A stretch of 24,675 bases of DNA. It comes from Nitrosomonas europaea. Its GTDB lineage: Bacteria; Pseudomonadota; Gammaproteobacteria; Burkholderiales; Nitrosomonadaceae. Within the stretch, counting starts at the first letter, position 1. Each line of letters starts with the position of its first letter. The notes under the pieces are model-generated. The model was not told where the DNA came from. It saw only the letters and a list, made by a program, of their open reading frames with translations, and searched no databases. The DNA lies in assembly GCF_900167395.1 (NCBI RefSeq), contig NZ_FUWK01000040.1, positions 1 to 24,675 on the forward strand. The letters run 5' to 3'. Of this stretch, positions 1-24,221 are shown in pieces. Made by a program: the position numbers and the translations under genes.

Positions 1-568
1 ACAGCTTCCATTCCCTGTTTTTCCGCCTGTTCAACAATGGCATTACTGTCATAGCCACGATCTGCCAGCAGATGATCTGCATCAATCCCTTCGATCAGGC
101 GGCCAGCCTGCGTGCAATCAGCAGTGGTACCTTGTGTAACAAGGATTCTGACCGGCATACCATGCGCATCCACGGCCAGATGTATCTTGGTGTTGAGCCC
201 CCTTTTGTCCGATTCATATCCTGATTACCTCCTCTGGCTCCACTGGCGTGTGGATGAACTTTACAGTGACTGGCATCCATTATCAGCCATTCATAATCTG
301 GATCATCAATCAGGATTTCCAGCAATTTTTCCCAGATACCTTTGTCACGCCAGCGAATGAAACGGCGATGAGTATTGCTCCAACCCCCGTAGTCCGGCGG
401 TAAATCCCTCCATGGGGCTCCTGTCCGTATAATCCAGAAAACAGCATTGATAAACTGACGATTATCTGTGGCCACCCCTCCCCATGCCCCTTCTCGGCCT
501 GGTAAATGCCCCTCAAGTAGCGACCATATCCTATCTGAAATATCATGCCTGCGATGTGAATGTGTCAT
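1..568 (-). CDS. IS5-family DDE transposase, OrfA/OrfB in two frames, C-terminus outside the window
   Basis: ORF 95-568 (MTHSHRRHDISDRIW...GAPWRDLP...) is the N-terminal DNA-binding part. The reverse complement of 1-203 in the -1 frame reads KRGLNTKIHLAVDAHGMPVRILVTQGTTADCTQAGRLIEGIDADHLLADRGYDSNAIVEQAEKQGMEAV, a DDE region. The frames meet at an A4G5 run (198-208), as in frameshift-dependent IS427-group elements. Confidence 0.8.
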
Positions 569-630
569 GCGAGTCCCTTTAATTTCTTAAAAGGATCTCA
601 TATTTCTTATCTCATGACTACACTATCTAG
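1..630 (-). mobile_element. IS5-family (IS427/IS1031-like) insertion sequence, partial; continues past the window start; inner end approximate
   Basis: Transposase frames run on the minus strand from 568 down to 1, with about 60 bp of non-coding IS end after the ATG. The adjacent + strand ORF (618-956) lacks a start codon, consistent with insertional truncation. CTAG at 627-630 is a plausible IS5-type target, but the exact terminus cannot be determined. Confidence 0.75.
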
Positions 631-956
631 AAACGAGTGATTTAATTGGGTGTTTGGGCTGGGGGCAACCCGAAATAGAAAAACACACTATTGCGCAACT
701 ATTAGCGAAAGAATTGCCCGAACCTGAAAGTGGACGGGTACCTATTTATATTTGTCCTGAGTGTGGTGATCTTGGGTGTGGCGCTGTAACTGCAAGAATA
801 GATGAAGAAGCAGACAGTTATATATGGTCAAATTTTGCATTCGAAAACAATTACGAAGGTACTATTGAACTATATAGTGAAGTTGGCCCATTTTCCTTTA
901 ACAAAGTTGCATATAGCAAAATCTTGAAAAAGAGGAGAACAGAAATTGCAGCATGA
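618..956 (+). pseudogene. 5'-truncated cassette ORF, hypothetical protein with CPECGDLGCG motif
   Basis: The frame is open from 618 right at the IS boundary with no ATG; the ORF track starts at a TTG at 654. The stop TGA (954-956) lies inside the first box of the following attC-like site. Confidence 0.5.
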
Positions 957-1028
957 CATGGCGCTAAACCTCGCTCCCTTCGGTCGATGGACGGCACTAA
1001 AGCACCGCCGGTTAGCTCTACGTTAGAA
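951..1028 (+). other. attC-like recombination site 1 (78 bp)
   Basis: GCATGAC (951-957, contains the upstream TGA stop) ... GCGCTAAACC pairs with GGTTAGC, leaving one extra A on the 5' arm ... GTTAGAA (1022-1028) sits 6 nt before ATG 1035. Both ends are homologous to the site at 3400-3483 (GCGCTAAACCTCGCTC vs GCGCTCAACACCGCTC; CCGCCGGTTAGCTCTACGTTAG vs CCGCCGTTAACTAATCGTTAAG). Confidence 0.6.
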
Positions 1029-1034
1029 GGCATT

Positions 1035-1517
1035 ATGAATACAGCACCCGAGTTGATCATTGCACGCAAGGCCATTGCCAAAATAGCTATTCGCTTTCCT
1101 TCTCTCACAATGATAGAAGAACCCACCGTACCAGTCGAACTAAGTATTCGTTTACCCGTGCAACCCGGACTAAATTACGAAGTTTGGCTTGCACTTCAAA
1201 ACAACGATGAACTTCATTTCTCAGTCGGAAATTTCTGGCTGGAGTGGTTTCCGTGTACAGAATCATCGCGCGTAAAGGAATATATTTCAGCTGTCACTGG
1301 CTTTTTATCCAGCCAATATCGTGTCTTGGAGCACTATCGTGGCAAACACTGCGTGAAAGCAGAGCTTCAAGCCCCAAGTGGCGGTGACTGGAAGACCGTT
1401 GGCACGTGGAGCAATCTTCTCAGTTTCCTGCCGCTACGCAGCTCTCTACGCGAGGTAAGCAATACCCAACCTATCATTCCACCGGACCTGCCGCAGCAAG
1501 CCGCACCCGATCGGTAA
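1035..1517 (+). CDS. hypothetical protein (cassette ORF)
   Basis: In-frame ATG at 1035 (MNTAPELIIARK...) within ORF 987-1517, starting 6 nt after the GTTAGAA core. No recognisable motif. Confidence 0.55.
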   Translation: MNTAPELIIARKAIAKIAIRFPSLTMIEEPTVPVELSIRLPVQPGLNYEVWLALQNNDELHFSVGNFWLEWFPCTESSRVKEYISAVTGFLSSQYRVLEHYRGKHCVKAELQAPSGGDWKTVGTWSNLLSFLPLRSSLREVSNTQPIIPPDLPQQAAPDR

Positions 1518-1532
1518 ATTCAGACATTAGTG
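1464..1532 (+). other. attC-like site 2 (69 bp), core G mutated
   Basis: ACCCAAC (1464-1470, perfect RYYYAAC) ... ATTCCACCGG pairs with CGGTAAAT, with an extra base on the 5' arm ... ATTAGTG (1526-1532), where the usual G is an A. The 3' arm CACCCGATCGGTAAATTCAGACATTAG aligns with the 3' arm of site 1. ATG 1540 follows after 7 nt. Confidence 0.45.
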
Positions 1533-1539
1533 CTCCCAA

Positions 1540-2064
1540 ATGGACTTCGATACATTCCGTCCGATTCTCAGTGGCCTGGTTGGCGGCTTGGTGGTTTATT
1601 TGCTTACTTATTCTGGCCGCAAGCCTGCAGCAACTGAAGGAGGAAGAAGGCTGTTGATTTATGGCCTCGGGATTAGAATCTTTACAGCCATTTTGATACC
1701 AAGCTCTCTATTCATTGCTTATGCCGCAGCTCATGCTCATCCAGACCAAGCAATTCTTGCGGTATGCATCGCCGCTGCATTCTTCTCTTATCAGGTATTT
1801 TTTGTCTCTCTGGCTTACGACAACGACAACATTTACTACCGAAGCCCAATTGGAGGAAACCATGTCATACCATGGCCGGATGTAGTCGAAGTTGGTTATT
1901 CGTGGCTTATGCAGAGCTACTATCTCCGGACGAAGCAAGTCCGGCGTATCTGGTGCTCAAATATGCTGCGTGGCTACAATGAGCTGGAGGAATTCATTCC
2001 GAAAAAAGCGGACAAGCTGTTTCATCCAGAGCTGAAGAGCTATAGCGAAGCTCATATAAATTGA
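1540..2064 (+). CDS. hypothetical integral membrane protein (cassette ORF); C-terminal tail altered by IS630 insertion
   Basis: There are several hydrophobic stretches (LSGLVGGLVVYLLTY, IRIFTAILIPSSLFIAYAAA, AILAVCIAAAFFSYQVFFV). Removing the IS and one TA copy restores ...CCA GAG CTG AAG AGC TAA, so the last 7 codons (YSEAHIN) are IS-derived. Confidence 0.65.
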   Translation: MDFDTFRPILSGLVGGLVVYLLTYSGRKPAATEGGRRLLIYGLGIRIFTAILIPSSLFIAYAAAHAHPDQAILAVCIAAAFFSYQVFFVSLAYDNDNIYYRSPIGGNHVIPWPDVVEVGYSWLMQSYYLRTKQVRRIWCSNMLRGYNELEEFIPKKADKLFHPELKSYSEAHIN

Positions 2065-2916
2065 TTATAATTTATAGATGACTTATCCCATTTCATTTCG
2101 CCGCAAAGTTTTATCTGTTCGAGAGAAGGAAGGACTCACCATAGCGCAAACGGCGGCTCGTTTTTGTGTGGGGATTGCCAGCGTAACACGCTGGATAAAA
2201 AATCCCGTTCCTAAAGAGAGCCGTAACAAACCGGCAACGAAGATCGACATGGCTGCGCTGGCCCATGATGTACGGGAATTTCCAGACGCCTATCAGGCCG
2301 AACGAGCTCGTCGACTGGGTGTAAGCGAAAAAGGTATCGGTCACGCACTGCGGCGTATGCACATCAGCTATAAAAAAAACACTGCAGCACCCCAAAGCGG
2401 ACGAAGACAAACGGCACACCTTCCAGGAGACGATTAAGGCGTATCAAGCTCAAAACCGCGTTATCGTCTATATTGACGAAAGTGGTTTTGCTCACGATAT
2501 GCCACGAACACATGGGTATGCACCCATTGGTAAACGGTGTCACGGCAAGTGTAATTGGCACGCGAGAGGCCGTATCAATGTCATCGGTGCATTGATAGGC
2601 AAATGTCTTCTGACGGTGGGATTATTCAAAAATAATATCGATGCAGATACTTTTTTAGGCTGGACGATACACGATCTGTTGCCAAAACTCCCACCTGCAT
2701 CGATTGTGGTCATGGATAACGCAACTTTCCGTAAAAGACAGGATATTCAAAATGTAATCACACGAGGCGGGCACACGCTTGAATATCTGCCAGCGTATTC
2801 ACCTGACCTTAATCCCATTGAGCACAAATGGGCACAAACCAAAGCAGTCAGAAAACAACAAAACCAAACCGTTGAGCAACTCTTTAAGATCGAATCATTT
2901 TATGTGACGTAGGCTA
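2043..2916 (+). mobile_element. IS630-family insertion sequence (874 bp) flanked by a TA duplication
   Basis: Terminal inverted repeats TAGCGAAGCTCATATAAATTGATT (2043-) and the reverse complement of 2916 backwards, TAGCCTACGTCACATAAAATGATT, match at about 24/33 positions counting the TA. TA is at 2041-2042 and 2917-2918, and the transposase lies inside. Confidence 0.8.
2078..2912 (+). CDS. IS630-family transposase, two frames joined at an A8 run
   Basis: ORF 2078-2437 is the HTH part; ORF 2499-2912 holds the DDE part (VYIDESGF...VVMDNATFRK...LPAYSPDLNPIEHKW). The second frame is already open from the A8 run at 2372-2379 (KKKTLQHPKADEDKRHTFQETIKAYQAQNRVIVYIDESGF). A +1/-2 shift, transcriptional slippage, or a 1-nt mutation is needed to join them. 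Confidence 0.8.
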
Positions 2917-2976
2917 TAACATCTCAGTCAACCCAAACACGCGAAAGTGCGCTGGTGACTTCAACCGTTATGCAAC
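2917..2976 (+). other. attC-like site 3, 3' portion (5' end AGCTA at 2038-2042 separated by the IS630 element)
   Basis: The reconstructed 60-bp site is AGCTAAC ATCTC AGTCAACC ... GGTGACT TCAACC GTTATGC. AGTCAACC pairs with GGTGACT, leaving one extra A on the 5' arm. GTTATGC (2970-2976) lies 12 nt before ATG 2989. Confidence 0.6.
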
Positions 2977-2988
2977 AGGAATCAGCCA

Positions 2989-3405
2989 ATGTTCAAACCA
3001 GTAGTACAAGAAGAAGTCACCGGATGCGGAATCGCATCGGTTGCCAATATTCTGGGTAAAACGTATTCAGAGATGAAGACCATAGCCAACGCCATGGGCA
3101 TCCATGCCTCGGATCAATCGCTGTGGTCGGATACCCAATACGTCCGACGTATGCTGTCTGGTGCTGGTGTTGAAACTTCCGAAGATGAAGTTCCGTTCGA
3201 ATCCTGGGATGCATTACCCGATCTGGCGTTGTTATCCATCAAGCATCATCAGGAAGAAGGCAAAGCTTTCTGGCACTGGGTTGTGTTCAAGCGTATGGAT
3301 GGTCAATCGTTCGTGCTGGATTCAGCCAGCTACCTGCCTTCCAATATCCGCCAGGATTTCGACGCTATGCAGCCTAAATGGTTTATCGAGGTCAAAAATG
3401 CGTAA
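2989..3405 (+). CDS. peptidase C39-like (papain-fold cysteine peptidase) domain protein
   Basis: N-terminal VTGCGIASVANIL (candidate catalytic Cys) and downstream FWHWVVF (candidate His), in a 138-aa protein. This is the same layout as bacteriocin-processing C39 domains. Assigned by eye only. Confidence 0.55.
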   Translation: MFKPVVQEEVTGCGIASVANILGKTYSEMKTIANAMGIHASDQSLWSDTQYVRRMLSGAGVETSEDEVPFESWDALPDLALLSIKHHQEEGKAFWHWVVFKRMDGQSFVLDSASYLPSNIRQDFDAMQPKWFIEVKNA

Positions 3406-3483
3406 CAATGCGCTCAACACCGCTCTTTTCGTTCGCTGGACAGCAAAAATACGCCTTTATCCGCCGTTAACTAATCGTTAAGC
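3400..3483 (+). other. attC-like site 4 (84 bp)
   Basis: GCGTAAC (3400-3406, contains the TAA stop of the peptidase gene) and GTTAAGC (3477-3483) are complementary at 6/7 positions. The arms GCTCAAC / GTTAAC are imperfect, with a central GCTG-GA-CAGC stem. ATG 3493 follows after 9 nt. Confidence 0.7.
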
Positions 3484-3492
3484 GCCGCAACG

Positions 3493-3996
3493 ATGCATTG
3501 CCGTAGTTTTCCTCCGATTGCAAGCCCAGGCTCATGGGTATTGATTCTTGGCACGATGCCCGGGAAAGTTTCACTTCGTGAGCAGCAGTATTATGCTCAC
3601 CCGCAAAACCTCTTCTGGAGAATCACTGCGGAGATTCTCGGTTTCGATGCCACAAGCGCATATCCTCTACGCGTATCTTCGCTAAAGGATCATGGCGTTG
3701 CGCTCTGGGATGTGCTGCAGTCATGTACGCGCGAAAGCAGTCTGGATGCTGATATCGTAGCGCATACGATCGTGCCAAACGATTTCGGTCGCTTTTTCAC
3801 GGCCTGTCCTGACATCCGACGGGTGTGTTTTAACGGTGCGAAGGCAGCAGCACTGTATGCCCGACATGTCAAACCGTTCTTACAAGACGCTCCCACAGTC
3901 GAGTATGTGCAGCTTCCCTCCACAAGTCCGGCGAATGCTGCTATTCCGCGAGCCGATAAGCTCCGCGCGTGGAGTGTCATTAAGCATAACGCCTAA
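3493..3996 (+). CDS. DNA-deoxyinosine (hypoxanthine) glycosylase, UDG superfamily family-6-like
   Basis: LILGTMPGKVSLREQQYYAHPQNLFWRI near the N-terminus and ~165 aa in size match my recollection of this family's signature (GxMPG..SL...QYYAHP.N.FW). Confidence 0.7.
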   Translation: MHCRSFPPIASPGSWVLILGTMPGKVSLREQQYYAHPQNLFWRITAEILGFDATSAYPLRVSSLKDHGVALWDVLQSCTRESSLDADIVAHTIVPNDFGRFFTACPDIRRVCFNGAKAAALYARHVKPFLQDAPTVEYVQLPSTSPANAAIPRADKLRAWSVIKHNA

Positions 3997-4040
3997 TCCG
4001 CGACTGGAGTCGGCGTGCTCCAGCGAATTTCAGCAGGACA
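3991..4040 (+). other. possible decayed attC or simple hairpin
   Basis: GCCTAAT (3991-3997) contains the TAA stop but has AAT instead of AAC. It is followed by a CGACTGGAG-N8-CTCCAGCG stem (4001-4025). No GTT core exists anywhere between 3996 and 4095. Confidence 0.25.
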
Positions 4041-4094
4041 CTTCACCATAAAGCAGCGCCTTTTCAACTTTTTACGATAAACCGGAGAAAAGAT

Positions 4095-4412
4095 ATGCGC
4101 CTCTTGATCGTTTTTTTACTGTTGTTGCCACTGCCTTCGCTGGCATTGCCACAGTGCGGATCAGAAGCCATTTTGCAGGCCCAAAAGCTCCTTTCCTTTC
4201 ATGTCGATGGTGATGACCGTGCACACGTCGATCCGAAAGCAATTGCTCTGCCATCTATCCGCAACCCGGCCAACAGGAAACAGAAGTTCCTGGTGCTTGA
4301 AGTTGACGGTACAGTTTACAAAAGTAAATACCGTATGCGGCTGATCTACTACCCGCTCGGTAGCGAATGCGTGCTCATGGGCCAGGAGATCCTGGAGCTC
4401 GCATCCCTGTAA
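4095..4412 (+). CDS. small secreted protein, hypothetical
   Basis: Signal-peptide-like N-terminus MRLLIVFLLLLPLPSLALPQ; GGAG sits 8 nt upstream of the ATG. Confidence 0.6.
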   Translation: MRLLIVFLLLLPLPSLALPQCGSEAILQAQKLLSFHVDGDDRAHVDPKAIALPSIRNPANRKQKFLVLEVDGTVYKSKYRMRLIYYPLGSECVLMGQEILELASL

Positions 4413-4422
4413 TGAAGCTGCG

Positions 4423-4482
4423 GCCTGACAATTCGTCCAGGCTGATGCCGCCTCGCAAAGTGACTTAATTCGAGTGTTATCT
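4423..4482 (+). other. attC-like site 6 (60 bp), probably decayed
   Basis: GCCTGAC AATTC GTCCAGGC ... GACTTAATTC GAGT GTTATCT. From memory it aligns without gaps at roughly 70% identity to the classic 60-bp aadA1 attC; this is unverified. The internal L-box complementarity is poor. Confidence 0.5.
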
Positions 4483-4508
4483 GGTATCTGGTTACCGCAC
4501 ACACAGTC

Positions 4509-4552
4509 TTGCATACTCCAAATAAGATGCTAATATAAGCGCTTTATTTGGA
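4509..4552 (+). promoter_or_regulatory. sigma-70-type promoter with flanking inverted repeat (putative antitoxin operator) for stbDE copy 1
   Basis: TTGCAT (4509-4514), 16 nt, TAATAT (4531-4536). TCCAAATAA (4517-4525) and TTATTTGGA (4544-4552) form a 9-bp inverted repeat bracketing the -10. Confidence 0.5.
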
Positions 4553-4568
4553 CCTCATTGGAGTATTT

Positions 4569-4820
4569 ATGCACCAAATACTGGCTTCATTTAGCGCAAG
4601 CATCTCTGAATTAAAGAAAAATCCAACAGCTTTGTTAAGAAAAGCCGAAGGGGAAACTATCGCTATTCTCAACCATAACCTGCCAACCGCTTACCTTGTT
4701 CCAGCCGAGGTATACGAGTTGTTGATGGAGAAATTGGAAGATTATGAATTAGGCGAAATTGTTAAGGCCAGGCAAGCGGAAAAACATTTGGCAATTGAAG
4801 TATCGCTTGATGACTTATAA
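4569..4820 (+). CDS. stbD: type II antitoxin, Phd/YefM-StbD family
   Basis: MHQILASFSASISELKKNPTALL...AILNHNLPTAYLVPAEVYE; GGAG lies 6 nt upstream of ATG 4569; it overlaps the toxin start by 11 nt. Confidence 0.85.
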   Translation: MHQILASFSASISELKKNPTALLRKAEGETIAILNHNLPTAYLVPAEVYELLMEKLEDYELGEIVKARQAEKHLAIEVSLDDL

Positions 4821-5100
4821 ATTAAAATTTTTGCCAAGTGCAAAAAAAGAGTGGGATAAACTGGACAGCAGCATCAAAACCCAATTTAAAAACAAATTAA
4901 AAAAATGCCTGGAAAATCCTCATATTCAGCCTAATAAACTACGTGGTTTTGATAACGCTTATAAAATCAAACTCCGCTCTGCAGGTTATCGGCTTGTTTA
5001 TGAAATCAATAATCAGGAAGTCGTTGTTTTCGTTATCGCTGTAGGCAAAAGGGAAAATAATAAGATTTACGATAAAGCAATCAACAGAACCAAAACTTAA
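4810..5100 (+). CDS. stbE: type II toxin, RelE/StbE (ParE/RelE superfamily)
   Basis: MTYKLKFLPSAKKEWDKLD...YKIKLRSAGYRLVYEINNQEVVVFVIAVGKRENNKIY. ATG 4810 is in the frame of ORF 4759-5100. Confidence 0.85.
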   Translation: MTYKLKFLPSAKKEWDKLDSSIKTQFKNKLKKCLENPHIQPNKLRGFDNAYKIKLRSAGYRLVYEINNQEVVVFVIAVGKRENNKIYDKAINRTKT

Positions 5101-5165
5101 CGCTTGCCCCGCTCACTATCCGGCTCCTGTCAGCCAGATTTCCAATATCAATAGGTATGTTGCGC
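5095..5165 (+). other. attC-like site 7 (71 bp), weak structure
   Basis: ACTTAAC (5095-5101, perfect RYYYAAC, contains the stbE TAA stop) ... central CCGGCT-N6-AGCCAG ... ATCAATAGG TAT GTTGCGC (5159-5165). The 3' end resembles the ATCAATAAC ACTT GTTATCT repeats at 21388-21409 and 22161-22182. The arms pair poorly. Confidence 0.4.
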
Positions 5166-5849
5166 AGAAGAACTTTTCTTTCCTGGAGTAGTGGCAAAGA
5201 CAGTGCATGGGCGCTTCATGTGCTGCGGCAAGATCCGCATGTCGATGTGATCGGGTTATTTTGCACAGTCAACAAAGTGTTTGATCGTGTTGTCATGCAT
5301 GGCGTAAGGGTGGCACTGCTACAGCAACAAGCGGAAAGTGCCGGTCTGCCGCTACACATCATCGAGATTCCCTATCCTTGCAGCAATGACGAATATGCAT
5401 CCGCCATGTCTGCGTTTGTTGATTCCGCCAGAAAGGAAAACATTGAGTGCTTTGCATTTGGCGATCTCCTGCTCGAAGATGTGCGTCAGTATCGGGAAGA
5501 TCGTCTGAATGGAACCGGGATAACACCCATTTTTCCGCTTTGGGGCATTCCAACAAAAACCCTCTCCCGGGAGATGGTGGCCGGTGGATTAAAGGCTGTG
5601 ATCACCTGCATTGATCCGAAACGTATTCCGGAGAGTTTCGCGGGCAGGGAGTACAACGAATCTTTTTTAGATGATATTCCGGGTAGCGTTGATCCTTGCG
5701 GTGAATATGGTGAGTTCCATACCTTCTCATTCGATGGGCCCATGTTTCAGAATCCGATAGACGTAGTGTTGGGAGAAACTGTCCATCGAGATGGTTTTGT
5801 ATTCACCGATCTGCTGTCACTCACATCCAGCACCGAGCCGACCCATTAG
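5157..5849 (+). CDS. PP-loop ATP pyrophosphatase, Dph6/MJ0570-like (adenine nucleotide alpha-hydrolase superfamily)
   Basis: N-terminal SWSSGKDS PP-loop, and a C-terminal CGEYGEFHTF motif typical of the DUF71/diphthine-ammonia-ligase-like family. Confidence 0.75.
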   Translation: MLRRRTFLSWSSGKDSAWALHVLRQDPHVDVIGLFCTVNKVFDRVVMHGVRVALLQQQAESAGLPLHIIEIPYPCSNDEYASAMSAFVDSARKENIECFAFGDLLLEDVRQYREDRLNGTGITPIFPLWGIPTKTLSREMVAGGLKAVITCIDPKRIPESFAGREYNESFLDDIPGSVDPCGEYGEFHTFSFDGPMFQNPIDVVLGETVHRDGFVFTDLLSLTSSTEPTH

Positions 5850-6143
5850 TTTTTGCTCACCCTCCTCTATTACCACAAATGAATTTCTCAATGTTTTCGA
5901 TACCTTTTCAAGATTCAGGATACTCTCCGATCATCGCCTGAGAATTGGCAATACCGTCATAAGCTGGCAAAATCTGCAATTTTCCGGATCTGGCTTCATT
6001 GTATGCTTACGCCATATCAGGTCTGGCTAAGGCATGATCCCATTTCCAGCCTCTATTTACTTGTCAAATAATCCGGTGGTAATCCCGCCTGCCGGCCAAG
6101 GAACTGAACCACGCCAGCGCCAACAGCCACAATCATTCTTACT

Positions 6144-11674: not shown

Positions 11675-13924
11675 ATGCGCATTGAAAAAAAGATCAAGGA
11701 TCATCTGGTTTTTTCCGGAGACAGTATCCTCGATGCTCTGAAACGCATCAATGACAACCAGTCCCGCATCGTTTTCGTCGTACAGGATAACGGGGTATTG
11801 ATCGGAGCGGTCAGTGATGGCGATGTACGGCGCTGGATGACTCAGGCAACCGAATTCAATCTGAATCTGCCGGTCGATCACGTGATGAACCGTAATTTCA
11901 TTGCGCGGCCGGTTACCGAATCTCAACATCAGATTGCCGATTATTTTGATCACAAACGCGACATCATTCCACTGATCGACGAACAGGGACGTTTTGTCGC
12001 CCTGGCGCGAAAATCAGCCACAGGACTTCAGATCGGAGATTTCCTGATTGCCGACCAGAATCCCGCATTCATCATCGCCGAGGTCGGTAACAACCACAAC
12101 GGCGATATCGGCCTTGCGAAAGAACTGGTGAATCTGGCAGTGGAAGCTGGAGCGGATTGTGTCAAATTCCAGATGCGGGATCTCTCCTCCCTGTATTCAA
12201 ATCAAGGCAGGAATGCGGAAGCGGGTTATGACCTCGGATCACAATACACGCTGGATCTGCTCAATAAATTCCAGCTGAACCATGACGAACTTTGTCAGGT
12301 ATTCGATTACTGCAGGCAGCAGGATATTTTGCCCCTATGCACGCCTTGGGATCTGGTAAGTGCCCATGTACTGGATGAATACGGACTGGAAGCCTTTAAA
12401 GTGGCTTCGGCTGATTTCACCAACTACGAAATGCTGGAGACTCTGGCGAAAACGGGCAAACCATTGCTCTGCTCCACCGGAATGAGTTCAGAAGCAGAAA
12501 TCAAAGGTTCAGTAGATTTATTGCGCCGGCTGGGCGCTCCTTTTGCCTTGCTGCACTGTAACTCGACCTACCCTGCTCCCTTCAAGGATGTAAACCTCAA
12601 TTACCTGCCGCACTTGAAACAACTGGGAGGTACCGTAGTAGGATATTCCGGTCACGAACGTGGATTCTCAGTACCTTTGGCTGCCGTTGCCCTTGGAGCC
12701 CGCATCGTGGAAAAACATTTCACTGTCGATCGCAGTATGGAAGGCAACGACCACAAAGTCAGCCTGCTGCCGGAAGAATTTGCAGAAATGGTGCGGCAGA
12801 TTCGTAACATCGAGGAAGCCCTGGGACAAGGCGGTGAGCGCTCACTCACACAAGGGGAAATGATCAATCGTGAAAATCTGGCCAAAAGCCTGGTAATCAA
12901 TTGCGATCTTTCGCAAGGGCAGCTTATCAGGCGCAGTATGATCACAGTGAAAAGCCCCGGGCAGGGTCTGCAACCCAATCGTATCGATGAGCTGGCAGGT
13001 AAGGTAGCACAGCGCGATTTCAAGGCCGGAGATTTCTTCTTTGAAACGGATATCACCCCGAAATCAGTCAAAAAACAGCACTATGTCTTTTCACGCCCTT
13101 ACGGGATCCCGGCACGCTATCACGATTATCGCGCGCTGATCGAGGGAATGAAAATCGACTTTGTCGAGTTTCATCTGAGCTACCACGATCTGGACGTAAA
13201 GCTGTCTGACTATTTCTCTGATCCGCTGTCGATCGGTTATGCCGTGCACAGCCCGGAGCTGTTCGCTGGTGACCATATTCTCGATCTGGCAAGCCATGAT
13301 GCGGATTATCAGGCGCATTCCATTGCCGAATTGAAACGCACGGTGGCTGTAGCCGCCGAGTTGCGCCAGTATTTCCCGGCGACACCGAAACCGGTACTGG
13401 TACTCAATGCCGGAGGCTGGACGCCACAGAATTTCCTGCCGGTTGAAGCACGTACGAAACTTTATGACAAAGTAGCCAAAGCACTGGATGAAATCGACTT
13501 GAGTACTGTTCAACTGGCTATTCAGACCATGCCCCCTTTTCCCTGGCACTTTGGGGGGCAGAGCCACCATAACCTGTTTGTCGACCCGGATGAAATCGCG
13601 GCATTCTGCGATAAAACCGGCCATCGTATCTGCCTTGATATTTCACATTCCATGATGGCCTGCAACTATTACCAGTGGGATTTCAATACATTTCTCCAAA
13701 AGGTGCTGCCTTATACCATCCATCTGCATATAGTCGATGCCAAGGGAGTAGATGGTGAAGGAGTTCAGATCGGCCATGGTGACGTGGATTTCACCTTGCT
13801 GCGTGATCAGTTGAACCAATTTGCTCGCGGAGTACAGTTCATACCTGAAATCTGGCAGGGTCACAAAAACAAGGGAGAAGGATTCTGGTCGGCATTGGCA
13901 TTTCTGGAGAAAACGAGCCTCTAG
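11675..13924 (+). CDS. three-part fusion: CBS pair + NeuB-type nonulosonate synthase with SAF domain + xylose-isomerase-like TIM-barrel domain
   Basis: aa 1-115 is CBS-like (VFVVQDNGVLIGAVSDGDVRRW; IIPLIDEQGRFVAL). aa ~125-400 is NeuB-like (FIIAEVGNNHNGD..., CVKFQ, FKVASADFTN, LHCNSTYP, GYSGHE, EKHFT). aa ~405-460 is SAF-like (ITVKSPGQGL). aa ~470-749 is TIM-barrel-like (FVEFHLSYHD, YAVHSPE, LNAGGW, LDISHS, HLHIVDA). Confidence 0.85.
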   Translation: MRIEKKIKDHLVFSGDSILDALKRINDNQSRIVFVVQDNGVLIGAVSDGDVRRWMTQATEFNLNLPVDHVMNRNFIARPVTESQHQIADYFDHKRDIIPLIDEQGRFVALARKSATGLQIGDFLIADQNPAFIIAEVGNNHNGDIGLAKELVNLAVEAGADCVKFQMRDLSSLYSNQGRNAEAGYDLGSQYTLDLLNKFQLNHDELCQVFDYCRQQDILPLCTPWDLVSAHVLDEYGLEAFKVASADFTNYEMLETLAKTGKPLLCSTGMSSEAEIKGSVDLLRRLGAPFALLHCNSTYPAPFKDVNLNYLPHLKQLGGTVVGYSGHERGFSVPLAAVALGARIVEKHFTVDRSMEGNDHKVSLLPEEFAEMVRQIRNIEEALGQGGERSLTQGEMINRENLAKSLVINCDLSQGQLIRRSMITVKSPGQGLQPNRIDELAGKVAQRDFKAGDFFFETDITPKSVKKQHYVFSRPYGIPARYHDYRALIEGMKIDFVEFHLSYHDLDVKLSDYFSDPLSIGYAVHSPELFAGDHILDLASHDADYQAHSIAELKRTVAVAAELRQYFPATPKPVLVLNAGGWTPQNFLPVEARTKLYDKVAKALDEIDLSTVQLAIQTMPPFPWHFGGQSHHNLFVDPDEIAAFCDKTGHRICLDISHSMMACNYYQWDFNTFLQKVLPYTIHLHIVDAKGVDGEGVQIGHGDVDFTLLRDQLNQFARGVQFIPEIWQGHKNKGEGFWSALAFLEKTSL

Positions 13925-16787: not shown

Positions 16788-17019
16788 ATGCCATATTCCA
16801 CACTATTTTAAGAGTGACAGCAAGCAGCCGTCATATCAGAGCTGCGCTGTATCAGCCAAAGGGGAAACCTGTACCAGAATTTTCTGAGATCTCGAATCAC
16901 GTGAGTTACTCGAAACCAGTGCCGTAAAGATTCAGAACAATCCTGCCGTATCCATACCAGCATCATGCTGTAACCGACAAAGGCTAATCTGTCGTAAGGC
17001 AGGGGCGCAAAGTTTCCGG

Positions 17020-17038
17020 TCCTGATCCATGATCAGGA
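17020..17038. promoter_or_regulatory. perfect 8-bp inverted repeat in the apaG/protease intergenic region
   Basis: TCCTGATC cat GATCAGGA, about 95 nt upstream of the protease ATG. Function unknown. Confidence 0.25.
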
Positions 17039-17132
17039 AAGCGGGACTGCCGAAGTTCGCATCCGATTTTCCATTCGGGCATGCGTGCTGATGAGTCGGC
17101 TTTCTATAACCCATCTTCTCAAGGAGCCGTGC

Positions 17133-19262
17133 ATGGCAAATGCAAAACCAGTTTGCTCACTCTTTCACTCTACTTTTCATGATGGTATTGCCAGTGTTTT
17201 TCACCGTTCTTTCAGCTTTCCACTTCTCCTGATTCTGCTGATCGCCTTTTCCGGCAGCGGCTACGCCAATTCGAGCAAAGAAACCCGGGCAGCTGCCAGA
17301 TCGGAATCTGCTGGTAAAACTGTTTCATCCCGCTGGGCGAAAGGCCGCTTGCTGGTCATTCCCCGTGCCGGTTTGACTGCGATGGAATTCGATAAAGCCA
17401 CCAAACCATATGGCGTGAAATCCAGACGCAGGCTCAACGGACTGAATGCTCACGTCTACGAACTGCCCGATGGCGTGGATGAAGTCAAAGTATTGGACAA
17501 ACTCAAGAAAGACCGGCGCTTCAAGGCGGTAGAGCTGGACAGGCTGGTTGAACCTGCTCAAGTCGTCACTGACCCCGCTTTTGGCAACAGTTGGGCACTG
17601 CCTAAAATTCAGGCGCCTGCCGCCTGGGATATTGCGACCGGTGACGGTATCACCATCGCGATTCTGGATACCGGTGTGGATGGCACTCACCCTGATCTGG
17701 CCGCCAACATGCTTCCCGGCTGGAATGCGTATGACAATAATACCGATACCAGTGATATCTACGGCCACGGTACCAAAGTGGCCGGCACGGCAGCCGCAGT
17801 CGCCAATAACGGTGCCGGCAGTTCCGGATTGGCCTGGAATGCACGCATTCTGCCGGTGCGTATTTCCATGCCGGATGGCCGTGCATACTTGAGCGACATG
17901 GCCAAAGGTATCCGCTGGGCGGCAGACAACGGCGCCAGAATAGCCAATATCAGCTACGGCGGTGCAGAAAGCCTGACTGTCCAGTCAGCTGCCAATTACA
18001 TGCGCAGCAAGGGTGGAGTGGTAGTCATGTCCGCAGGTAATTCCGGTGGATTGAACAATTTTCCCGCCAGTAACGCCATCATCGTTGCTTCAGCTACGGA
18101 CAGCAAAGATGCCCGTGCCAGCTGGTCCAGCTACGGGCCTTATGTCGATGTGGCAGCCCCCGGTGTGAGCATCTATACCACGATACGCGGTGGTGGTTAC
18201 GGCTATGTCTCCGGCACATCCTTCTCCAGCCCGATCGTAGCGGCAGCTGCTGCATTGCTGTTTTCCATCAACCCGGATCTTGCTCCGACGGATATCGACC
18301 AGATGCTGACCGCTACTGCGCAAGACCTTGGCAACGCCGGATATGACCAATATTACGGCCATGGCCGTATCAATGCCGCCAGTGCGGTCAATGCTGCCCA
18401 CGCACGCATCAGCGTAGACAGAACGGCACCGCTGATCAGCATTGCTTCCCCCACTGGTGGAACAGTCTCTGGCAGCGTTCCGGTAGATGTCAATTATTCC
18501 GACAACAAGGGCGTGGTGCGGGTGGATCTGTACGTCAACGGCCGCAAAACAATCGAAGATACTCAACCACCTTTCGCCTTCGCCTGGGATACCACGACAC
18601 TGGCTAACGGCAGCTATACGCTGGTCGCATATGCCTTCGATGCCGCCGGCAACCAGGGCACTTCTTCCACTGTGAATGTCACGGTAAAAAATACTGTGGC
18701 CGATACCACCCCGCCGACGATCAGCATTACCTCCCCTGCCGGTGGAGCCGTCGTCTTAGGCAGTGTGCCAGTCAATGTCAATTCTTCCGACAACATTGGA
18801 GTGGTACGCACGGAGCTACACGTCAATGGTAAAAAAGTGATGGAAGGTACCGGCTCCAGTTTTGTCTGGGATACCAAATCACTGGCAGATGGCAACTATA
18901 CGCTGGTAGCGTATGCCTTTGATGCTGCCGGCAACCAAGGTGCTTCCTCTCCGGTAGCTGTCAGTGTAAAAAATACCGGCACTACTACAAATACCGAACC
19001 ACTGCCGCAAATCAACTCATTCAACCTCAGGGATGGGCAGAACGTCAGCCGTAACCAGAATATCAGGGTAACTGCCGACAGGAACACCCGCAAAATCAAC
19101 CTGAAAATCAATGGCGGCATTATCGCCGCTGCTAACGGTAACTCGTTGAGTTATCGCTGGAATACCAGTGCGATCCCCAAAAATAGTAATATCACCGTCA
19201 CGGCAGAAGCATTCAATGCCAAAGGGGATGCCACCAGCAGAACAGTCACGGTAAGAAATTAG
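17133..19262 (+). CDS. secreted subtilisin-like serine protease (peptidase S8) with C-terminal tandem Ig-like domains
   Basis: AAGGAG lies 6 nt upstream of ATG 17133, and there is a hydrophobic signal region FPLLLILLIAFSGSGYA. Catalytic triad motifs are AILDTGVD, HGTKVAGTAAA and SGTSFSSPIVAAAAA. Three ~95-aa repeats follow. Confidence 0.85.
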   Translation: MANAKPVCSLFHSTFHDGIASVFHRSFSFPLLLILLIAFSGSGYANSSKETRAAARSESAGKTVSSRWAKGRLLVIPRAGLTAMEFDKATKPYGVKSRRRLNGLNAHVYELPDGVDEVKVLDKLKKDRRFKAVELDRLVEPAQVVTDPAFGNSWALPKIQAPAAWDIATGDGITIAILDTGVDGTHPDLAANMLPGWNAYDNNTDTSDIYGHGTKVAGTAAAVANNGAGSSGLAWNARILPVRISMPDGRAYLSDMAKGIRWAADNGARIANISYGGAESLTVQSAANYMRSKGGVVVMSAGNSGGLNNFPASNAIIVASATDSKDARASWSSYGPYVDVAAPGVSIYTTIRGGGYGYVSGTSFSSPIVAAAAALLFSINPDLAPTDIDQMLTATAQDLGNAGYDQYYGHGRINAASAVNAAHARISVDRTAPLISIASPTGGTVSGSVPVDVNYSDNKGVVRVDLYVNGRKTIEDTQPPFAFAWDTTTLANGSYTLVAYAFDAAGNQGTSSTVNVTVKNTVADTTPPTISITSPAGGAVVLGSVPVNVNSSDNIGVVRTELHVNGKKVMEGTGSSFVWDTKSLADGNYTLVAYAFDAAGNQGASSPVAVSVKNTGTTTNTEPLPQINSFNLRDGQNVSRNQNIRVTADRNTRKINLKINGGIIAAANGNSLSYRWNTSAIPKNSNITVTAEAFNAKGDATSRTVTVRN
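18414..18983 (+). repeat. tandem coding repeat, two units of ~285/282 bp (plus a third divergent unit to ~19259)
   Basis: ...SPTGGTVSGSVPVDVNYSDNKGVVRVDLYVNG...GSYTLVAYAFDAAGNQG... vs ...SPAGGAVVLGSVPVNVNSSDNIGVVRTELHVNG...GNYTLVAYAFDAAGNQG.... The same repeat produces the two minus-strand shadow ORFs ending in PWLPAASKAYATSV. Confidence 0.85.
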
Positions 19263-20335: not shown

Positions 20336-20504
20336 AATCAACGCTTGTTACACTCGGTACCGGCACCAGCGCTTTCCGAACCTTCAGCTCAACTTCAGCA
20401 CAGATCACAAAACGCTGCTTCCAGAGAACCCCGAGCCGAGCCGGTTCAACAAACGGGCCATACCGTGGTTCACTTCGCGAACGACATAACCTTAATTGTT
20501 ATGT
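20336..20504 (-). other. long attC-like element / repeat A1 downstream of parE
   Basis: On the minus strand, ACATAAC (contains the parE TAA stop) AATTA AGG... ends in ...GTGTAACAAGC GTTGATT (rc of 20336-20342). Parts are repeated at 23339-23424. At 169 bp it is long for an attC, and the structure has not been checked. Confidence 0.4.
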
Positions 20505-20795
20505 TTCAGTTGGTAAAACAAGCGGTCGCTCACTGCGCCAAACACGAATTACTTTTATCGCGCCTTTTTCCCTCAGATAAACCACCCTGAAAGGAGCAAA
20601 GATAATTTCCCGGATATGGGGGAGTTGGAATTCAGGCACTATTCTGCCCATATCCGGATGGTCGGCCAAAATCTGAATATGCTCGATTATTTCTTGGGCA
20701 AATTTGAAACCAACATCAGGAACACCTTCTGCAGTGTAATAACTGATCATGGTTTCCAGGTCATTAAAAGCAGAATTGGAAATGCTGACTTTCAT
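20499..20795 (-). CDS. parE: type II toxin, ParE/RelE family
   Basis: MKVSISNSAFNDLETMISYY...PFRVVYLREKGAIKVIRVWRSER. Overlaps the antitoxin by 4 nt. Confidence 0.85.
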   Translation of the reverse strand: MKVSISNSAFNDLETMISYYTAEGVPDVGFKFAQEIIEHIQILADHPDMGRIVPEFQLPHIREIIFAPFRVVYLREKGAIKVIRVWRSERPLVLPTET

Positions 20796-21061
20796 TCGAT
20801 GCCTAAACGCTTTTTCGCCTCAGACAATGACATGGTATTGCCCTCTTTGATGTCCATAAGACCTTGGGCAACCGCTTTGACAAAAGCCAGCTCTTCCTGG
20901 CTCTTTTCATATTCATCGAGGTCTTGCACTACAGCCACACCTCGGCCACGACTGGTTAAAAGAACAGGTCTGCGAGTTTCTTTAACTCGGCTTACAACGC
21001 GACCAGGATTGACTTTTAAATCTGCAAGGGGAATTACATCTTCAGAGAATTTGATTGTCAT
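20792..21061 (-). CDS. type II antitoxin, Phd/YefM family
   Basis: MTIKFSEDVIPLADLKVNPGRVVSRVKETRRPVLLTSRGRGVAVVQDLDEYE. GGAGG lies 5 nt upstream of ATG 21061; the track start at 21073 is a TTG. Confidence 0.85.
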   Translation of the reverse strand: MTIKFSEDVIPLADLKVNPGRVVSRVKETRRPVLLTSRGRGVAVVQDLDEYEKSQEELAFVKAVAQGLMDIKEGNTMSLSEAKKRLGIE

Positions 21062-21088
21062 GACTGCCTCCAAAATGATTTAGACCAG

Positions 21089-21118
21089 TTTATAGCACCT
21101 ATTAACATAACTTGTAAA
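21089..21118 (-). promoter_or_regulatory. candidate sigma-70 promoter of phd-parE
   Basis: On the minus strand, TTTACA, 18 nt, TATAAA, about 25 nt upstream of the RBS. Confidence 0.4.
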
Positions 21119-21180
21119 AAGACATAATTGAGGGTATGCAGCCCGCGTCATCGGTTCGGAATGATGTGGTTCAATAGATC

Positions 21181-21378
21181 TGTACACTGCAGTCAAGAGA
21201 TAATATTTTTAACTGGAGGTCAGGAGATGATCACAAGGAAGCAGTATTCAAAAGAGTTCAAACTGGACGCTGTCAGTCTGGCACTGGATCAGGGAGTATC
21301 GGGAGGATAGCAACGGACAGGCATTCAGGGGTAACGGCAAGCTGACCCCGGAGCAGGAGGAAATCAGAAATCAAAGGA
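21181..21378 (+). pseudogene. IS3-family relic: left end plus internally deleted, 3'-truncated orfA
   Basis: TGTACACTGCAG... is an IS150/IS3-like terminus. ATG 21227 gives MITRKQYSKEFKLDAVSLALDQG, then a frame break. A second frame reads AFRGNGKLTPEQEEIRNQ, and the similarity ends near 21375. No orfB is present. Confidence 0.65.
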
Positions 21379-21387
21379 TCAGGTCCA

Positions 21388-21437
21388 GAATCAATAACAC
21401 TTGTTATCTTATTTTCTTCATTCTCGGCCTGGCCCCT
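21388..21437. repeat. repeat C1 (GAATCAATAACACTTGTTATCT) fused to repeat B3
   Basis: The 17-bp GAATCAATAACACTTGT is identical at 22161-22177. CTTATTTTCTTCATTCTCGGCCTGGCCC matches B1 (23013-) at about 24/28. It contains an AAC/GTT heptamer (21403-21409) 35 nt downstream of the mazF stop. Confidence 0.55.
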
Positions 21438-21444
21438 ATTATTT

Positions 21445-21783
21445 CTAGCTGCCGATAATTTCATTTAAACCTTCAACAATCTGCGCAAGCTCTTCAGGAG
21501 CAATCGCCCCGATCTTCTTACCAATGCGTTCAGTGGAAAGTGTACGGATTTGACTTATCTTTACCCAGGAGCGTTTAGGCAAGCTGGATTTCAGAATTTC
21601 GTATGTCAACGGAAATCCGGCGCGCTGTTCCTGACTGGTGAGCGCCATAGCAATGACTGTTCCGGACCGCTCATTGAATATATCCTGACTCAGGACAAGA
21701 ATCGGCCGCTCACCTGATTGCTCTCGACCAACAGTTGGATTGAGATTAGCCCACCGGATCTCGCCCCTCAATATTTTGGCCAC
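21445..21783 (-). CDS. mazF: type II toxin, MazF/PemK-family endoribonuclease
   Basis: [37 protein letters not shown]...[14 protein letters not shown]. Confidence 0.85.
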
Positions 21784-22010
21784 GCAACCAGCTCCTCAGA
21801 CAAACCTTCGTCTGCCATTGCCTTTTCAAAGGCAGGATCAAGTTTTGCGCATTCCTCGGCCAGACGGCTACGATCCATGCGCTCCAGCTTTTCCTGCACA
21901 GCCTCCTGGATCGCACGGCTGCGGTTAGCAAATACACGCTGCCTCACCAGCGCATCCACTCTGGCAAGCACCTCTTCTTCGATTGTGATAGCTACTTTGG
22001 TCTGACTCAT
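21768..22010 (-). CDS. type II antitoxin, ribbon-helix-helix (CopG-like)
   Basis: [38 protein letters not shown]. Overlaps mazF by 16 nt. Confidence 0.8.
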
Positions 22011-22028
22011 AACGACACCTTACTCTAG

Positions 22029-22068
22029 TATGACAATTGATCATACCTTCTAAATTTTGTCAGTACAA
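22029..22068 (-). promoter_or_regulatory. sigma-70 promoter and near-palindromic operator of the RHH-mazF operon
   Basis: On the minus strand, TTGTAC (rc of 22063-22068), 17 nt, TATGAT (rc of 22040-22045). TATGA-N7-TCATA (22029-22045) overlaps the -10. Confidence 0.5.
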
Positions 22069-22182
22069 CCTGAAGTAGCTAACGGTTTAGCCCTCTATTA
22101 CAACCTTGCGAAAAACAGCGGTGATTAGCGCTCAGGTAGAGATAAATTCCACGAAACCCGGAATCAATAACACTTGTCAACT
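22063..22182. other. attC-like element between the vapBC and mazEF modules (orientation ambiguous)
   Basis: AAC/GTT heptamers occur at both ends: GTACAAC / AGCTAAC (22063-22083) and GTCAACT (22176-22182). AGCTAAC and the rc of GTCAACT match at 5/7. Internal stem ATTCC-N9-GGAAT. Read on the minus strand, it starts 34 nt after the vapC stop and ends 66 nt before the RHH ATG. Confidence 0.4.
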
Positions 22183-22216
22183 TAAAAACAGCTTGATCAG
22201 GTATAAAAAAGGGTAT

Positions 22217-22645
22217 TTATGCTTCGGTTTCCCAGGGATTAATTACATTCAAACCTGCAATGTCCTCAAAATCAACGGTATTACGCGTAGATAAGAACAT
22301 TCGATATGCCAGCGCAATCGCAGCGATCTGAGCATCCTCCACGCTGATGGGCCGACCCATTCGGGTCCGTGTAGAAACGATACGCCCATAGTAACTGGCC
22401 GCGATTTCATCAAATGGCAGGCAGCGCCCGGCAAAATCCTCATCGAACATTGTCCGGGCGGCCTGGCTTAAACTTTTCTGTCGCTTACTCTCCGGCATCA
22501 GTGCCAGGCCTAATTCGATTTCGGCACGGCTAACAGCGTTTGTCCAGATCTCATTGGGCGCCTGCCTGTCCAGCCAAACAACCACTTGAGTAGCGGGTTG
22601 CAGACGCATAAATTCAGAAAGCACATTGGTATCGAGCAAAATCAT
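22217..22645 (-). CDS. vapC: type II toxin VapC (PIN-domain ribonuclease)
   Basis: MILLDTNVLSEFMR... with the conserved acidic residues of PIN domains. Overlaps the antitoxin by 4 nt. Confidence 0.85.
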   Translation of the reverse strand: MILLDTNVLSEFMRLQPATQVVVWLDRQAPNEIWTNAVSRAEIELGLALMPESKRQKSLSQAARTMFDEDFAGRCLPFDEIAASYYGRIVSTRTRMGRPISVEDAQIAAIALAYRMFLSTRNTVDFEDIAGLNVINPWETEA

Positions 22646-22896
22646 ATTGGCTCATCCCAACTCGGCGGAGTGCGCGGCACCTGACGTGCGGGCAAAGCAA
22701 ACTCTTTGCTTGTTGACTCAGCAAAGCGACTCAGCAAATGCTGGCCAAATGGGAATTGACTACTACCAGCACGAGAAAGCTCCTGCCGAAGGATTCGCCG
22801 CACCTCCTCTTCCATTGACACCCCATGCTGCGCCGCACGAATACGCAGCAACCGTTTGGTTACATCGTCCACATTGCGAATGGTCAACGTTGCCAT
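22642..22896 (-). CDS. vapB: type II antitoxin VapB, FitA/Arc-type RHH
   Basis: MATLTIRNVDDVTKRLLRIRAAQHGVSMEEEVRRILRQ. Confidence 0.8.
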   Translation of the reverse strand: MATLTIRNVDDVTKRLLRIRAAQHGVSMEEEVRRILRQELSRAGSSQFPFGQHLLSRFAESTSKEFALPARQVPRTPPSWDEPI

Positions 22897-22913
22897 AAGA
22901 AATCTCCCAGATT

Positions 22914-22957
22914 GACATCAATGCTATCATTATCGGCATTGATGTCTTAGCTGTCAA
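22914..22957 (-). promoter_or_regulatory. sigma-70 promoter of vapBC with a perfect 11-bp inverted-repeat operator
   Basis: On the minus strand, TTGACA (rc of 22952-22957), 17 nt, GATAAT (rc of 22929-22934). GACATCAATGC (22914-22924) and GCATTGATGTC (22936-22946) flank the -10. Confidence 0.6.
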
Positions 22958-23012
22958 ACAAGAAAAATGACGGGGAAAACGGAGACAAACCATGGTTATC
23001 ATTAACGCTAGG

Positions 23013-23048
23013 CTTATTTTCTTGATTCGCAACCTGACCCTCATCACG
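23013..23048. repeat. repeat B1
   Basis: CTTATTTTCTTGATTCGCAACCTGACCCTCATCACG. Near-identical copy at 24173-24207 and a diverged copy at 21408-21437. A GTT heptamer (GTTATCA, 22995-23001) starts 18 nt before it. Confidence 0.6.
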
Positions 23049-23338
23049 CTTTGGTGATCAGAACGGCAACGGCCGGATCAGCTTCCATTACCGCGACAAC
23101 CGTCCGCCACTACCAGGCCGACGTTCCTATGCCCACACTGCGGCGAACCGATGCAGATGATTTGACAGCGTATTTCACCAACAGCAATCAGACAACAAAT
23201 GACGAAACTGGCAACAGAGATGACTGTGCACACCTGTCCACTGACAAAAGACGCGCTGACCAGCGCCACGGCCACATTCGGCCGAGAAACGGGAGAAACA
23301 TGGCGTAACCGCAGAAATTACCCAGTTATTCAGATCTG

Positions 23339-23424: not shown

Positions 23425-23489
23425 CTTTATGAGACCATTTTAAAGTACCATAATTAGTCTTTACTATTCCTGTTCTTTGGATCAAAGCC

Positions 23490-24161: not shown

Positions 24162-24172
24162 ATCTGTTTAGA

Positions 24173-24207: not shown

Positions 24208-24221
24208 TTGAAAATATTGGC

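Follow-up and report, generated by a model that had tools for sequence, protein, structure and literature searches.

We describe here the left part of a 24,675-nucleotide (nt) window of the Nitrosomonas europaea ATCC 19718 chromosome (AL954747.1 ~1,690,569–1,715,243, window base 1 ≈ 1,690,569), in which short open reading frames (ORFs) of one orientation alternate with sites that have the layout of integron attC sites. This locus is probably a fossil integron cassette array in the chromosome, namely a decayed CALIN, the name given with IntegronFinder to a cluster of attC sites lacking an integron-integrase (Cury et al. 2016, PMC4889954). It fits the definition of a CALIN in its site count, its lack of an integrase, the organization of the cassettes, and the mobility of the cassettes, and it fails on the hairpins and in part on the core triplets: the layout and sequence of attC can still be recognized, but little is left of the hairpin that defines an attC. 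The sites are degraded relics and not working attCs, with eroded stems and, in sites 1, 2, and 5, mutated conserved triplets. The first-pass annotation of the window, made from the letters alone, had read this region as an integron-type cassette array with no integrase in the window, typical of sedentary chromosomal integrons or CALINs, with six attC sites, beginning at the insertion sequence (IS) at the left edge of the window. This interpretation is supported here with corrections: the sites are relics, the sixth is not an attC, and the array extends to the left of the IS.

Two covariance models were used to look for attC sites. The first (R1) derives from an alignment of 14 attC sites of class 1 integrons on plasmids, with the R and L boxes paired, and the second (R2) from 34 foreign attC sites, all of them R1 hits located on plasmids or within four foreign arrays, with no N. 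europaea sequence among them. Flanking DNA was provided by two loci, L002 adding 6.5 kb to the left of the window and L016 ~10 kb to the right, and the R1 search was run on the window and L002 with filters off. As a positive control, R1 found a site after most cassettes of an array lying downstream of an integrase-family gene in contig L117 (13–65 bits). In control DNA, consisting of ~190 kb of other Nitrosomonas loci, R2 gave only five hits at E < 0.1, all of them within or beside arrays. The bottom strand of each site was also folded as DNA, and its folding free energy (dG) was compared with those of dinucleotide shuffles to give a z-score (z).

On the plus strand of the array, R1 matched 4423–4482 (27.1 bits, E 1e-4), 1464–1533 (15.7 bits), 3400–3483 (13.0 bits), and 2914–2973 (11.3 bits), and beyond the window, left of the IS, L002 5565–5623 (+, 14.7 bits). 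R2 matched, on the same strand, 3400–3483 (24.9 bits, E 0.0012 for the 65 kb searched), 4423–4482 (21.4 bits, E 0.008), 1464–1532 (20.3 bits, E 0.015), 2914–2973 (14.7 bits), and 951–1028 (10.2 bits). These R2 matches, which correspond to sites 4, 5, 2, 3, and 1, respectively, are the top five on either strand within 600–5300. With the R1 and R2 models, at least two attC sites are detected on one strand less than 4 kb apart, as in a CALIN. Sites 1–5 were recovered at or within 3 nt of the positions first proposed, and site 6 was not; the three sites on which that proposal had been staked, 3400–3483, site 3 and, weakly, 951–1028, are all matched by models trained on foreign sequences. Rfam gave no attC-type match in the window, its sole match there being a c-di-GMP riboswitch away from the array.

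Sites 1–5 share the R''-spacer-L''...L'-spacer-R' layout, made of a heptamer, 5 nt, a short arm, a centre, the other arm, 5–6 nt, and a final GTTRRRY heptamer. The AAC of R'' and the GTT of R' are both intact in site 4 and in site 3 once reconstructed, while R'' has GAC in sites 1 and 5 and R' has ATT in site 2. The extra unpaired base noticed earlier in the 5′ arm is indeed kept at the bulge position of the models, within L'', and is a C in sites 2, 4, and 5. The ORFs are co-oriented on the plus strand and start 6–15 nt past the R' heptamers (the distances from the last heptamer being 6, 7, 15, and 9 nt for sites 1–4, respectively, a slightly wider range than the 6–12 nt first given), and the stop codon lies inside R'' in three cassettes. 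Stops inside the first heptamer had been claimed for sites 1, 3, 4, and 6, correctly in each case, with the IS removed from site 3. The homology seen between sites was confirmed as well, sites 1 and 4 being ~69% identical. A repeat search found no repeat family among the proposed sites, and a terminator scan found no terminator-like site coinciding with any proposed attC. A MAFFT alignment of all the local sites was uninformative, and pairwise alignments to orthologues were used instead.

The window opens within an IS5-family element of 832 bp in total (L002 6303–7134, minus strand), the right-hand 626 bp of which are window positions 1–626. This element, with a Pfam DUF4096 domain, terminal inverted repeats, and a 3-bp target duplication CTA (second copy at 627–629), interrupts cassette ORF 1, whose 3′ part lies at 630–956 (+) and whose initial 114 nt are on the left side of the IS (L002 6189–6302). 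Removing the element restores an in-frame ORF of 146 amino acids (aa), and full-length 146-aa homologues span the junction; the product has a CxxC...CG motif and no assigned function. The attC relic 1 (951–1028, +) has R'' GCATGAC, in which AAC is changed to GAC, R' GTTAGAA, a deletion in the central stem, and a fold z of ~0. Cassette ORF 2 (1035–1517, +), encoding 160 aa with no assigned function, reads through into its own attC, relic 2 (1464–1532, +), where R'' is ACCCAAC and the R' core has gone from GTT to ATT (ATTAGTG; dG −6.4, z +0.3). A TAA to CAA change in R'' as the source of this read-through was rejected, as the intact orthologue also reads into its attC.

Cassette ORF 3 (1540–2042, +) encodes a membrane protein, of 167 aa without the IS that splits its TAA stop codon. 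This IS is an 874-bp IS630-family element (2043–2916, +; Pfam HTH_Tnp_IS630 and DDE_3) with inverted repeats and a TA duplication (2041–2042 and 2917–2918), and it sits inside R'' of attC 3. What follows the element, at 2919–2973 (+), is attC 3 minus its first 5 nt (AGCTA, 2038–2042), and the R1 and R2 scores given above for site 3 are those of this IS-cut copy. When the element is excised with one of the TA copies, AGC TAA C reappears together with the stop codon of the membrane-protein ORF, and the reconstructed site 3 is obtained (2038–2042 plus 2919–2973, 60 nt, AGCTAAC...GTTATGC). The reconstruction starts at 2919 because the TA duplication must be removed, and it ends at 2973 rather than at 2976, where the first-pass annotation had put the end.

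Cassette ORF 4 (2989–3405, +) encodes a 138-aa protein with a weak similarity to C39 peptidases and is followed by relic 4 (3400–3483, +; R'' GCGTAAC, R' GTTAAGC), in which the central stem is eroded and has received an insertion (z 0). Then comes a two-gene unit (3493–4412, +) composed of a UDG-superfamily glycosylase gene (3493–3996, Pfam UDG) and the gene of a 105-aa signal-peptide protein (4095–4412), with no attC-model match between the two. The next site, relic 5 (4423–4482, +), is 60 nt long, with an apparent R'' GCCTGAC and a fold z of −0.8. Its whole length aligns at 73% identity with the aadB/aadA1/qacF-type attC found in clinical class 1 integron cassettes, and its differences from the aadB-type attC are almost all transitions, several of them at CpG positions of the stem. 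Its first 5 nt are resident sequence according to the comparison with the closest relative having the locus, a metagenome-assembled genome labelled Betaproteobacteria bacterium PRO5 (hereafter PRO5), so that the apparent R'' of relic 5 is a junction.

The array ends with a toxin-antitoxin module (4483–5131, +), in which Pfam identifies Phd/YefM (4569–4820) and ParE/RelE (4810–5100) genes and which has a 9-bp inverted repeat upstream. The promoter of its own that had been ascribed to this module was not found, as a consensus promoter scan flagged nothing there. The proposed site 6 (5095–5165, +) is not an attC, and no more than its first ~37 nt might be the 5′ stump of one (fold z ~0). Neither R1 nor R2 gave a hit on the plus strand, and the only signal was an 8.4-bit R-box match on the wrong strand. 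In the alignment with PRO5, 5132–5165 corresponds to the conserved leader and start of a Dph6-like gene, and the GTTGCGC of site 6 stems from a 21-nt in-frame difference within that gene; site 6 was rejected on these two grounds.

Cassettes 1, 2, and 4 were found in unrelated bacteria as an ORF with a homologous, intact attC, cassettes 2 and 4 downstream of a divergently oriented gene of the integrase family. They have the attributes of mobile units, being present in other arrays, and the 5′ boundaries of cassette 1 and of the UDG unit fall at the R' core. An orthologue of cassette 1, 86% identical, lies between two strong attCs in contigs L126/L127. The downstream one, the intact attC that belongs to the orthologous cassette (L127 1164–1250, 35.1 bits), shares 79% identity with site 1; in site 1, the TAAC of R'' has become TGAC and the stem has suffered a deletion. 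Across three different arrays, the conservation of cassette 1 at its 5′ end sets in with the GTTATGC core and the sequence upstream differs, a pattern that recombination at G|TT would be expected to leave.

Cassette 2 has 215 homologues scattered over phyla. In the array of contig L123, a gene 79% identical to it is followed by an attC (L123 8435–8505, 46.5 bits, dG −20.6, z −4.7) to which site 2 is 72% identical, and in Halopseudomonas oceani (locus L124) cassette 2 occupies the fourth gene position behind a truncated integrase-family gene. For cassette 4, there are 2132 homologues; the 120 listed are 80–92% identical and belong to beta- and gammaproteobacteria, the hosts among those listed including Nitrosomonas, Stutzerimonas, Halopseudomonas, Aquabacterium, Sulfuriferula, Marinobacterium, and others. 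This cassette occurs in S. stutzeri CP003677 and also in the L117 array, where a 321-aa integrase-family gene of divergent orientation lies upstream of it. In Stutzerimonas, the attC behind the orthologous gene (L115 10412–10487, z −3.3) and site 4 are 67% identical from end to end. The conservation of the 138-aa protein is unusually strong for an orphan cassette gene.

The folds of the local sites set them apart from these intact counterparts. Their bottom strands gave dG values of −6.4 to −10.2 kcal/mol with z of about −0.8 to +0.8, against −14 to −39 kcal/mol and z of −1.3 to −8.1 for 14 plasmid attCs folded by the identical method, and against z of −1.1 to −5.4 for 20 of the 23 model-detected sites of the foreign arrays and the PRO5 locus. 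No stable bottom-strand hairpin was found at the local sites, and the imperfect palindromes described in the first-pass annotation are thus weak, with z near 0. The canonical R/L hairpin is the minimum-energy fold only in the reconstructed site 3, where it is weak (−6.9 kcal/mol, z −0.5). The model scores of the local sites are also below those of the orthologous sites. By eye, where R'' overlaps a stop codon, AAC has become GAC in site 1 (TAA to TGA), and the site left of the IS has the same TGAC; no other transition would preserve a stop codon.

The array is ~7 kb long, from L002 ~4640 to window position ~5130, and ~1.7 kb of it lies to the left of the IS5-family element where it had been thought to start. 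This part contains two further array ORFs (L002 4757–5534 and 5641–6093), the attC-like site already matched by R1 (L002 5565–5623, +; R2 18.3 bits over 5565–5618), and a second attC-like site (L002 6088–6172) recognized mainly by eye (R2 9.9 bits for its 3′ part and 9.4 bits on the opposite strand). Another R1 match, at L002 4558–4639 (11.3 bits), falls inside the AMP-binding gene mentioned below and was treated as chance. The left edge directly follows, on the same strand, a conserved acyl-CoA dehydrogenase/AMP-binding gene pair, in which the AMP-binding gene is acyl-CoA ligase-like. In other Nitrosomonadaceae, this pair is conserved and synteny is broken immediately after it, and the DNA downstream of the AMP-binding gene gave no attC hits. 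A GTT is present at the stop codon of the AMP-binding gene in N. europaea and in its closest relative; a synteny scan with the AMP-binding protein did not place the left junction with single-base precision.

The earlier observation that no integrase accompanies the array held for the window and its flanks. The gene tables contain no intI or remnant of it in the window, in the 6.5 kb to its left, or in the ~10 kb to its right, and a tblastn search of the window and flanks, for which the queries were IntI1 and two integrase-family proteins of the comparison arrays, returned nothing below E 0.4. The locus does not have the composition of a complete integron, in which intI, attI, and the promoter Pc stand beside the first cassette. 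The intI genes of N. europaea are listed in published tables as NE0450 and NE2189, of which one is predicted to be functional and the other is inactivated (PMC2426708 and PMC3108266, supplements), and the same genome is reported to have another cassette array with the group IIC-attC intron N.e.I1, tied to the intron protein NP_842195 (PMC3001079).

The comparison with PRO5 reveals three shared blocks, at window positions 2987–3407 (92%), 3487–4427 (96.7%), and 5160 onward (93%). PRO5 has a different gene ahead of the 138-aa gene, as well as GNAT and GFA genes located between the 138-aa and UDG genes, each with its own attC-like site (36.3 bits after GNAT). It lacks the Phd/ParE pair, the segment from 4428 to ~5131 being absent. 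By eye, the stretch of homology that contains the UDG gene begins, on its upstream side, with the R' core of site 4. The ORF order, which would be expected to persist in an ordinary operon, is not conserved, and PRO5 differs by whole cassettes. All the N. europaea-like contigs recovered have one cassette order, and only PRO5 was informative; an IS630-free allele in contig L007 was rejected, as this contig merely begins inside the IS. In PRO5, a 33-nt 'mini attC' (L119 2701–2733, GCATAAC...GTTATGT) follows the 138-aa gene and an R''-L''-R' stump follows the gene preceding it, which means that attC erosion by internal deletion also took place in the PRO5 lineage. In another Nitrosomonas, N. oligotropha Nm75, two matches on one strand ~800 bp apart (L049 5034–5113, 24.6 bits, and 5842–5901, 30.3 bits) are probably a small cassette cluster.

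Several points weigh against the locus being a decayed CALIN. The R1 and R2 models are small and purpose-built, distinct from the attC model of IntegronFinder. R1, which is fully independent, gives only 11–16 bits for sites 2, 3, and 4 and no hit for site 1, and the training set of R2 includes the orthologues of sites 2 and 4, so that the R2 scores of these two sites are inflated by homology. The boundaries of the toxin-antitoxin indel between N. europaea and PRO5 are not at G|TT, and this difference is therefore not a clean integrase event. With both core triplets kept in site 4 and a canonical fold in site 3, some residual recombination is possible. As to its origin, the array could have arisen by insertion at a secondary GTT, that of the AMP-binding stop codon, or could be the remnant of a complete integron.

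In the latter case, the intI/attI end would have been lost through IS-mediated rearrangement or deletion, in place of an assembly in trans at a secondary site. Two IS are present in the array, with a third 19 kb farther right, the array-bearing contig of PRO5 ends at an element judged by eye to be another IS, and CALINs have been proposed to arise in this way (PMC4889954). However, the array abuts a conserved housekeeping gene and no intI remnant was found in the window and flanks, and the GTT at the stop codon of the AMP-binding gene would also suit an insertion at a secondary site. We regard this origin as possible, if on balance doubtful; it concerns only where the array came from and is compatible with its present state as a decayed CALIN.

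It is improbable that the locus is a working CALIN, whose divergent but functional attCs would be shuffled in trans by an integron integrase encoded elsewhere in the genome. The 2003 study of Leon and Roy reportedly found the N. europaea integron integrase to be active, and the published intI tables agree with one being present. From accession and locus-tag numbering, we take the NE0450, NE2189, and NP_842195 loci to be hundreds of kb from the window. Continued shuffling would also be in line with the AAC and GTT kept by site 4, with the GTT and canonical fold kept by site 3, and with the whole-cassette differences between N. europaea and PRO5. Against this, the local bottom strands fold like shuffles, where real attCs, direct orthologues included, fold clearly better. 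Moreover, site 2 has an ATT in R', site 1 a GAC in R'', the R'' of site 5 is a junction artefact, and an IS lies inside site 3, while a single cassette order was seen in all the N. europaea-like contigs recovered. That the spacers are ordinary intergenic elements unrelated to integrons, such as terminators or repetitive extragenic palindrome (REP)-like sequences with a chance attC look, is hardly credible, for although the hairpins are weak, the independent R1 scores are modest for four of the five sites, and an AAC-ending heptamer and a GTT are easily found by eye, the models match five sites at the predicted places and strand in 4.7 kb and almost none in control DNA, the sites are homologous one by one to intact attCs on orthologous genes in other arrays, no terminator-like sites are found there, and the gene order is not conserved in relatives.

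If the locus is a decayed CALIN, as we favor, promoterless cassettes of one or two genes, each ending in an attC, would have been stacked head to tail by an integron integrase. This assembly would have begun before the N. europaea and PRO5 lineages split, and cassettes would have been gained or lost afterwards. Some of them are common to the arrays of Stutzerimonas and Halopseudomonas (Pseudomonadales), with no direction of transfer implied. Most of the cassettes would now be frozen in place, and any expression of them would come from read-through of the upstream operon, with the toxin-antitoxin module probably depending on its own promoter and operator.

The locus resembles known CALINs in having several attC-type sites on the same strand less than 4 kb apart, each after a short promoterless ORF mostly with no assigned function, in having no intI within 10 kb but intI elsewhere in the genome, and in its association with IS elements. 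Unlike a typical CALIN, its sites are decayed, with shuffle-like hairpins and core triplets mutated in three of them, and the array abuts a housekeeping operon. The chromosomal arrays of Stutzerimonas (Pseudomonas) stutzeri and Halopseudomonas have cassettes 2 and 4 in common with it (57–87% amino-acid identity), and in sequence, sites 1 and 4 fall into one attC family with the Stutzerimonas attC (67% identity across the entire site). However, the L117 and L124 arrays adjoin an integrase-family gene and their matching attCs fold well, whereas here the host is a betaproteobacterial ammonia oxidizer and no integrase is adjacent. Like the 60-bp aadA/aadB/qacF-type attC of class 1 cassettes, site 5 is 60 nt long and conserves the spacer AATTC and the bulged C; unlike them, it accompanies no resistance gene, its stem is destroyed, its 5′ end is truncated, and it lies upstream of a toxin-antitoxin module and not behind the gene of its own cassette. 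The N. europaea integron with the intron N.e.I1 (PMC3001079) is a separate array in the same genome, AL954747, and attests to past or present integron activity. No published description of the present array was found; the coverage of this search did not extend to Leon and Roy 2003, and an earlier description is thus possible.

Other features of the window lie to the right of the array. A 749-aa protein (11675–13924) combines CBS, NeuB, SAF, and xylose-isomerase-like TIM-barrel domains and belongs to a sugar-nucleotide cluster located beside the array and near flagellin genes, which suggests a role of this cluster in flagellin glycosylation. The riboswitch detected by Rfam is a c-di-GMP-I-GGC riboswitch (RF03167, 59.4 bits) at 16973–17055 (+), directly upstream of the gene of a secreted subtilase with Big_7 repeats (17085–19262).

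Farther right, ~9 toxin-antitoxin modules (ParE/Phd, PemK/RHH, VapBC, HigBA, and others) form an island, mostly on the minus strand, at window positions 20400–24400 and L016 6772–15417, and the island ends at a flagellin gene. The best attC-model match of the whole window is located there (24268–24339, minus strand, R2 31 bits) and is conserved in CP054389, and after vapC there is, by eye, a relic similar to sites 1 and 4 (~22078–22140, minus strand). The island may represent another cassette cluster, oriented opposite to the first. Two identical 23-nt stretches (20481–20503 and 23401–23423) contain the palindrome ACATAAC-CTTAAT-TGTTATG, an R''/R' pair with almost nothing between, and score 12–14 bits with the attC models on the minus strand and 8–10 bits on the plus strand. 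Similar ATAACAAGTGTTAT motifs are found between toxin-antitoxin modules and also at ~21392–21409. These 23-nt palindromes could be collapsed attC sites or operators. A second IS5-family element extends from 24370 to the window end (L016 10643–11485), ~30 nt from the attC-like sequence at 24268–24339, and is absent from CP054389. A composite structure formed by the IS5-family elements at both window ends was rejected, the two being unrelated in DNA sequence.

There is only a slight chance that the array amounts to a natural record of cassette domestication, in which old captures became fixed behind a fatty-acid operon as their attC hairpins disappeared. For at least three sites, an intact orthologous attC is available, and the path of attC decay can therefore be read base by base. 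If it were true that selection against recombinogenic or structured single strands, and not drift, drove the loss of the hairpins, this would be new. The locus changes no concept, CALINs and their likely origins having already been described. It shows cassettes shared between arrays of the Pseudomonadales type and a chemolithoautotrophic ammonia oxidizer, and it offers a worked example of a decaying CALIN, with ORFs intact, attC sites eroding, and IS accumulating. Because its attC sites are decayed, a standard tool might call only some of them; attC-based tools can under-call such arrays, and the cassette origin of 'orphan' chromosomal genes may consequently be missed.

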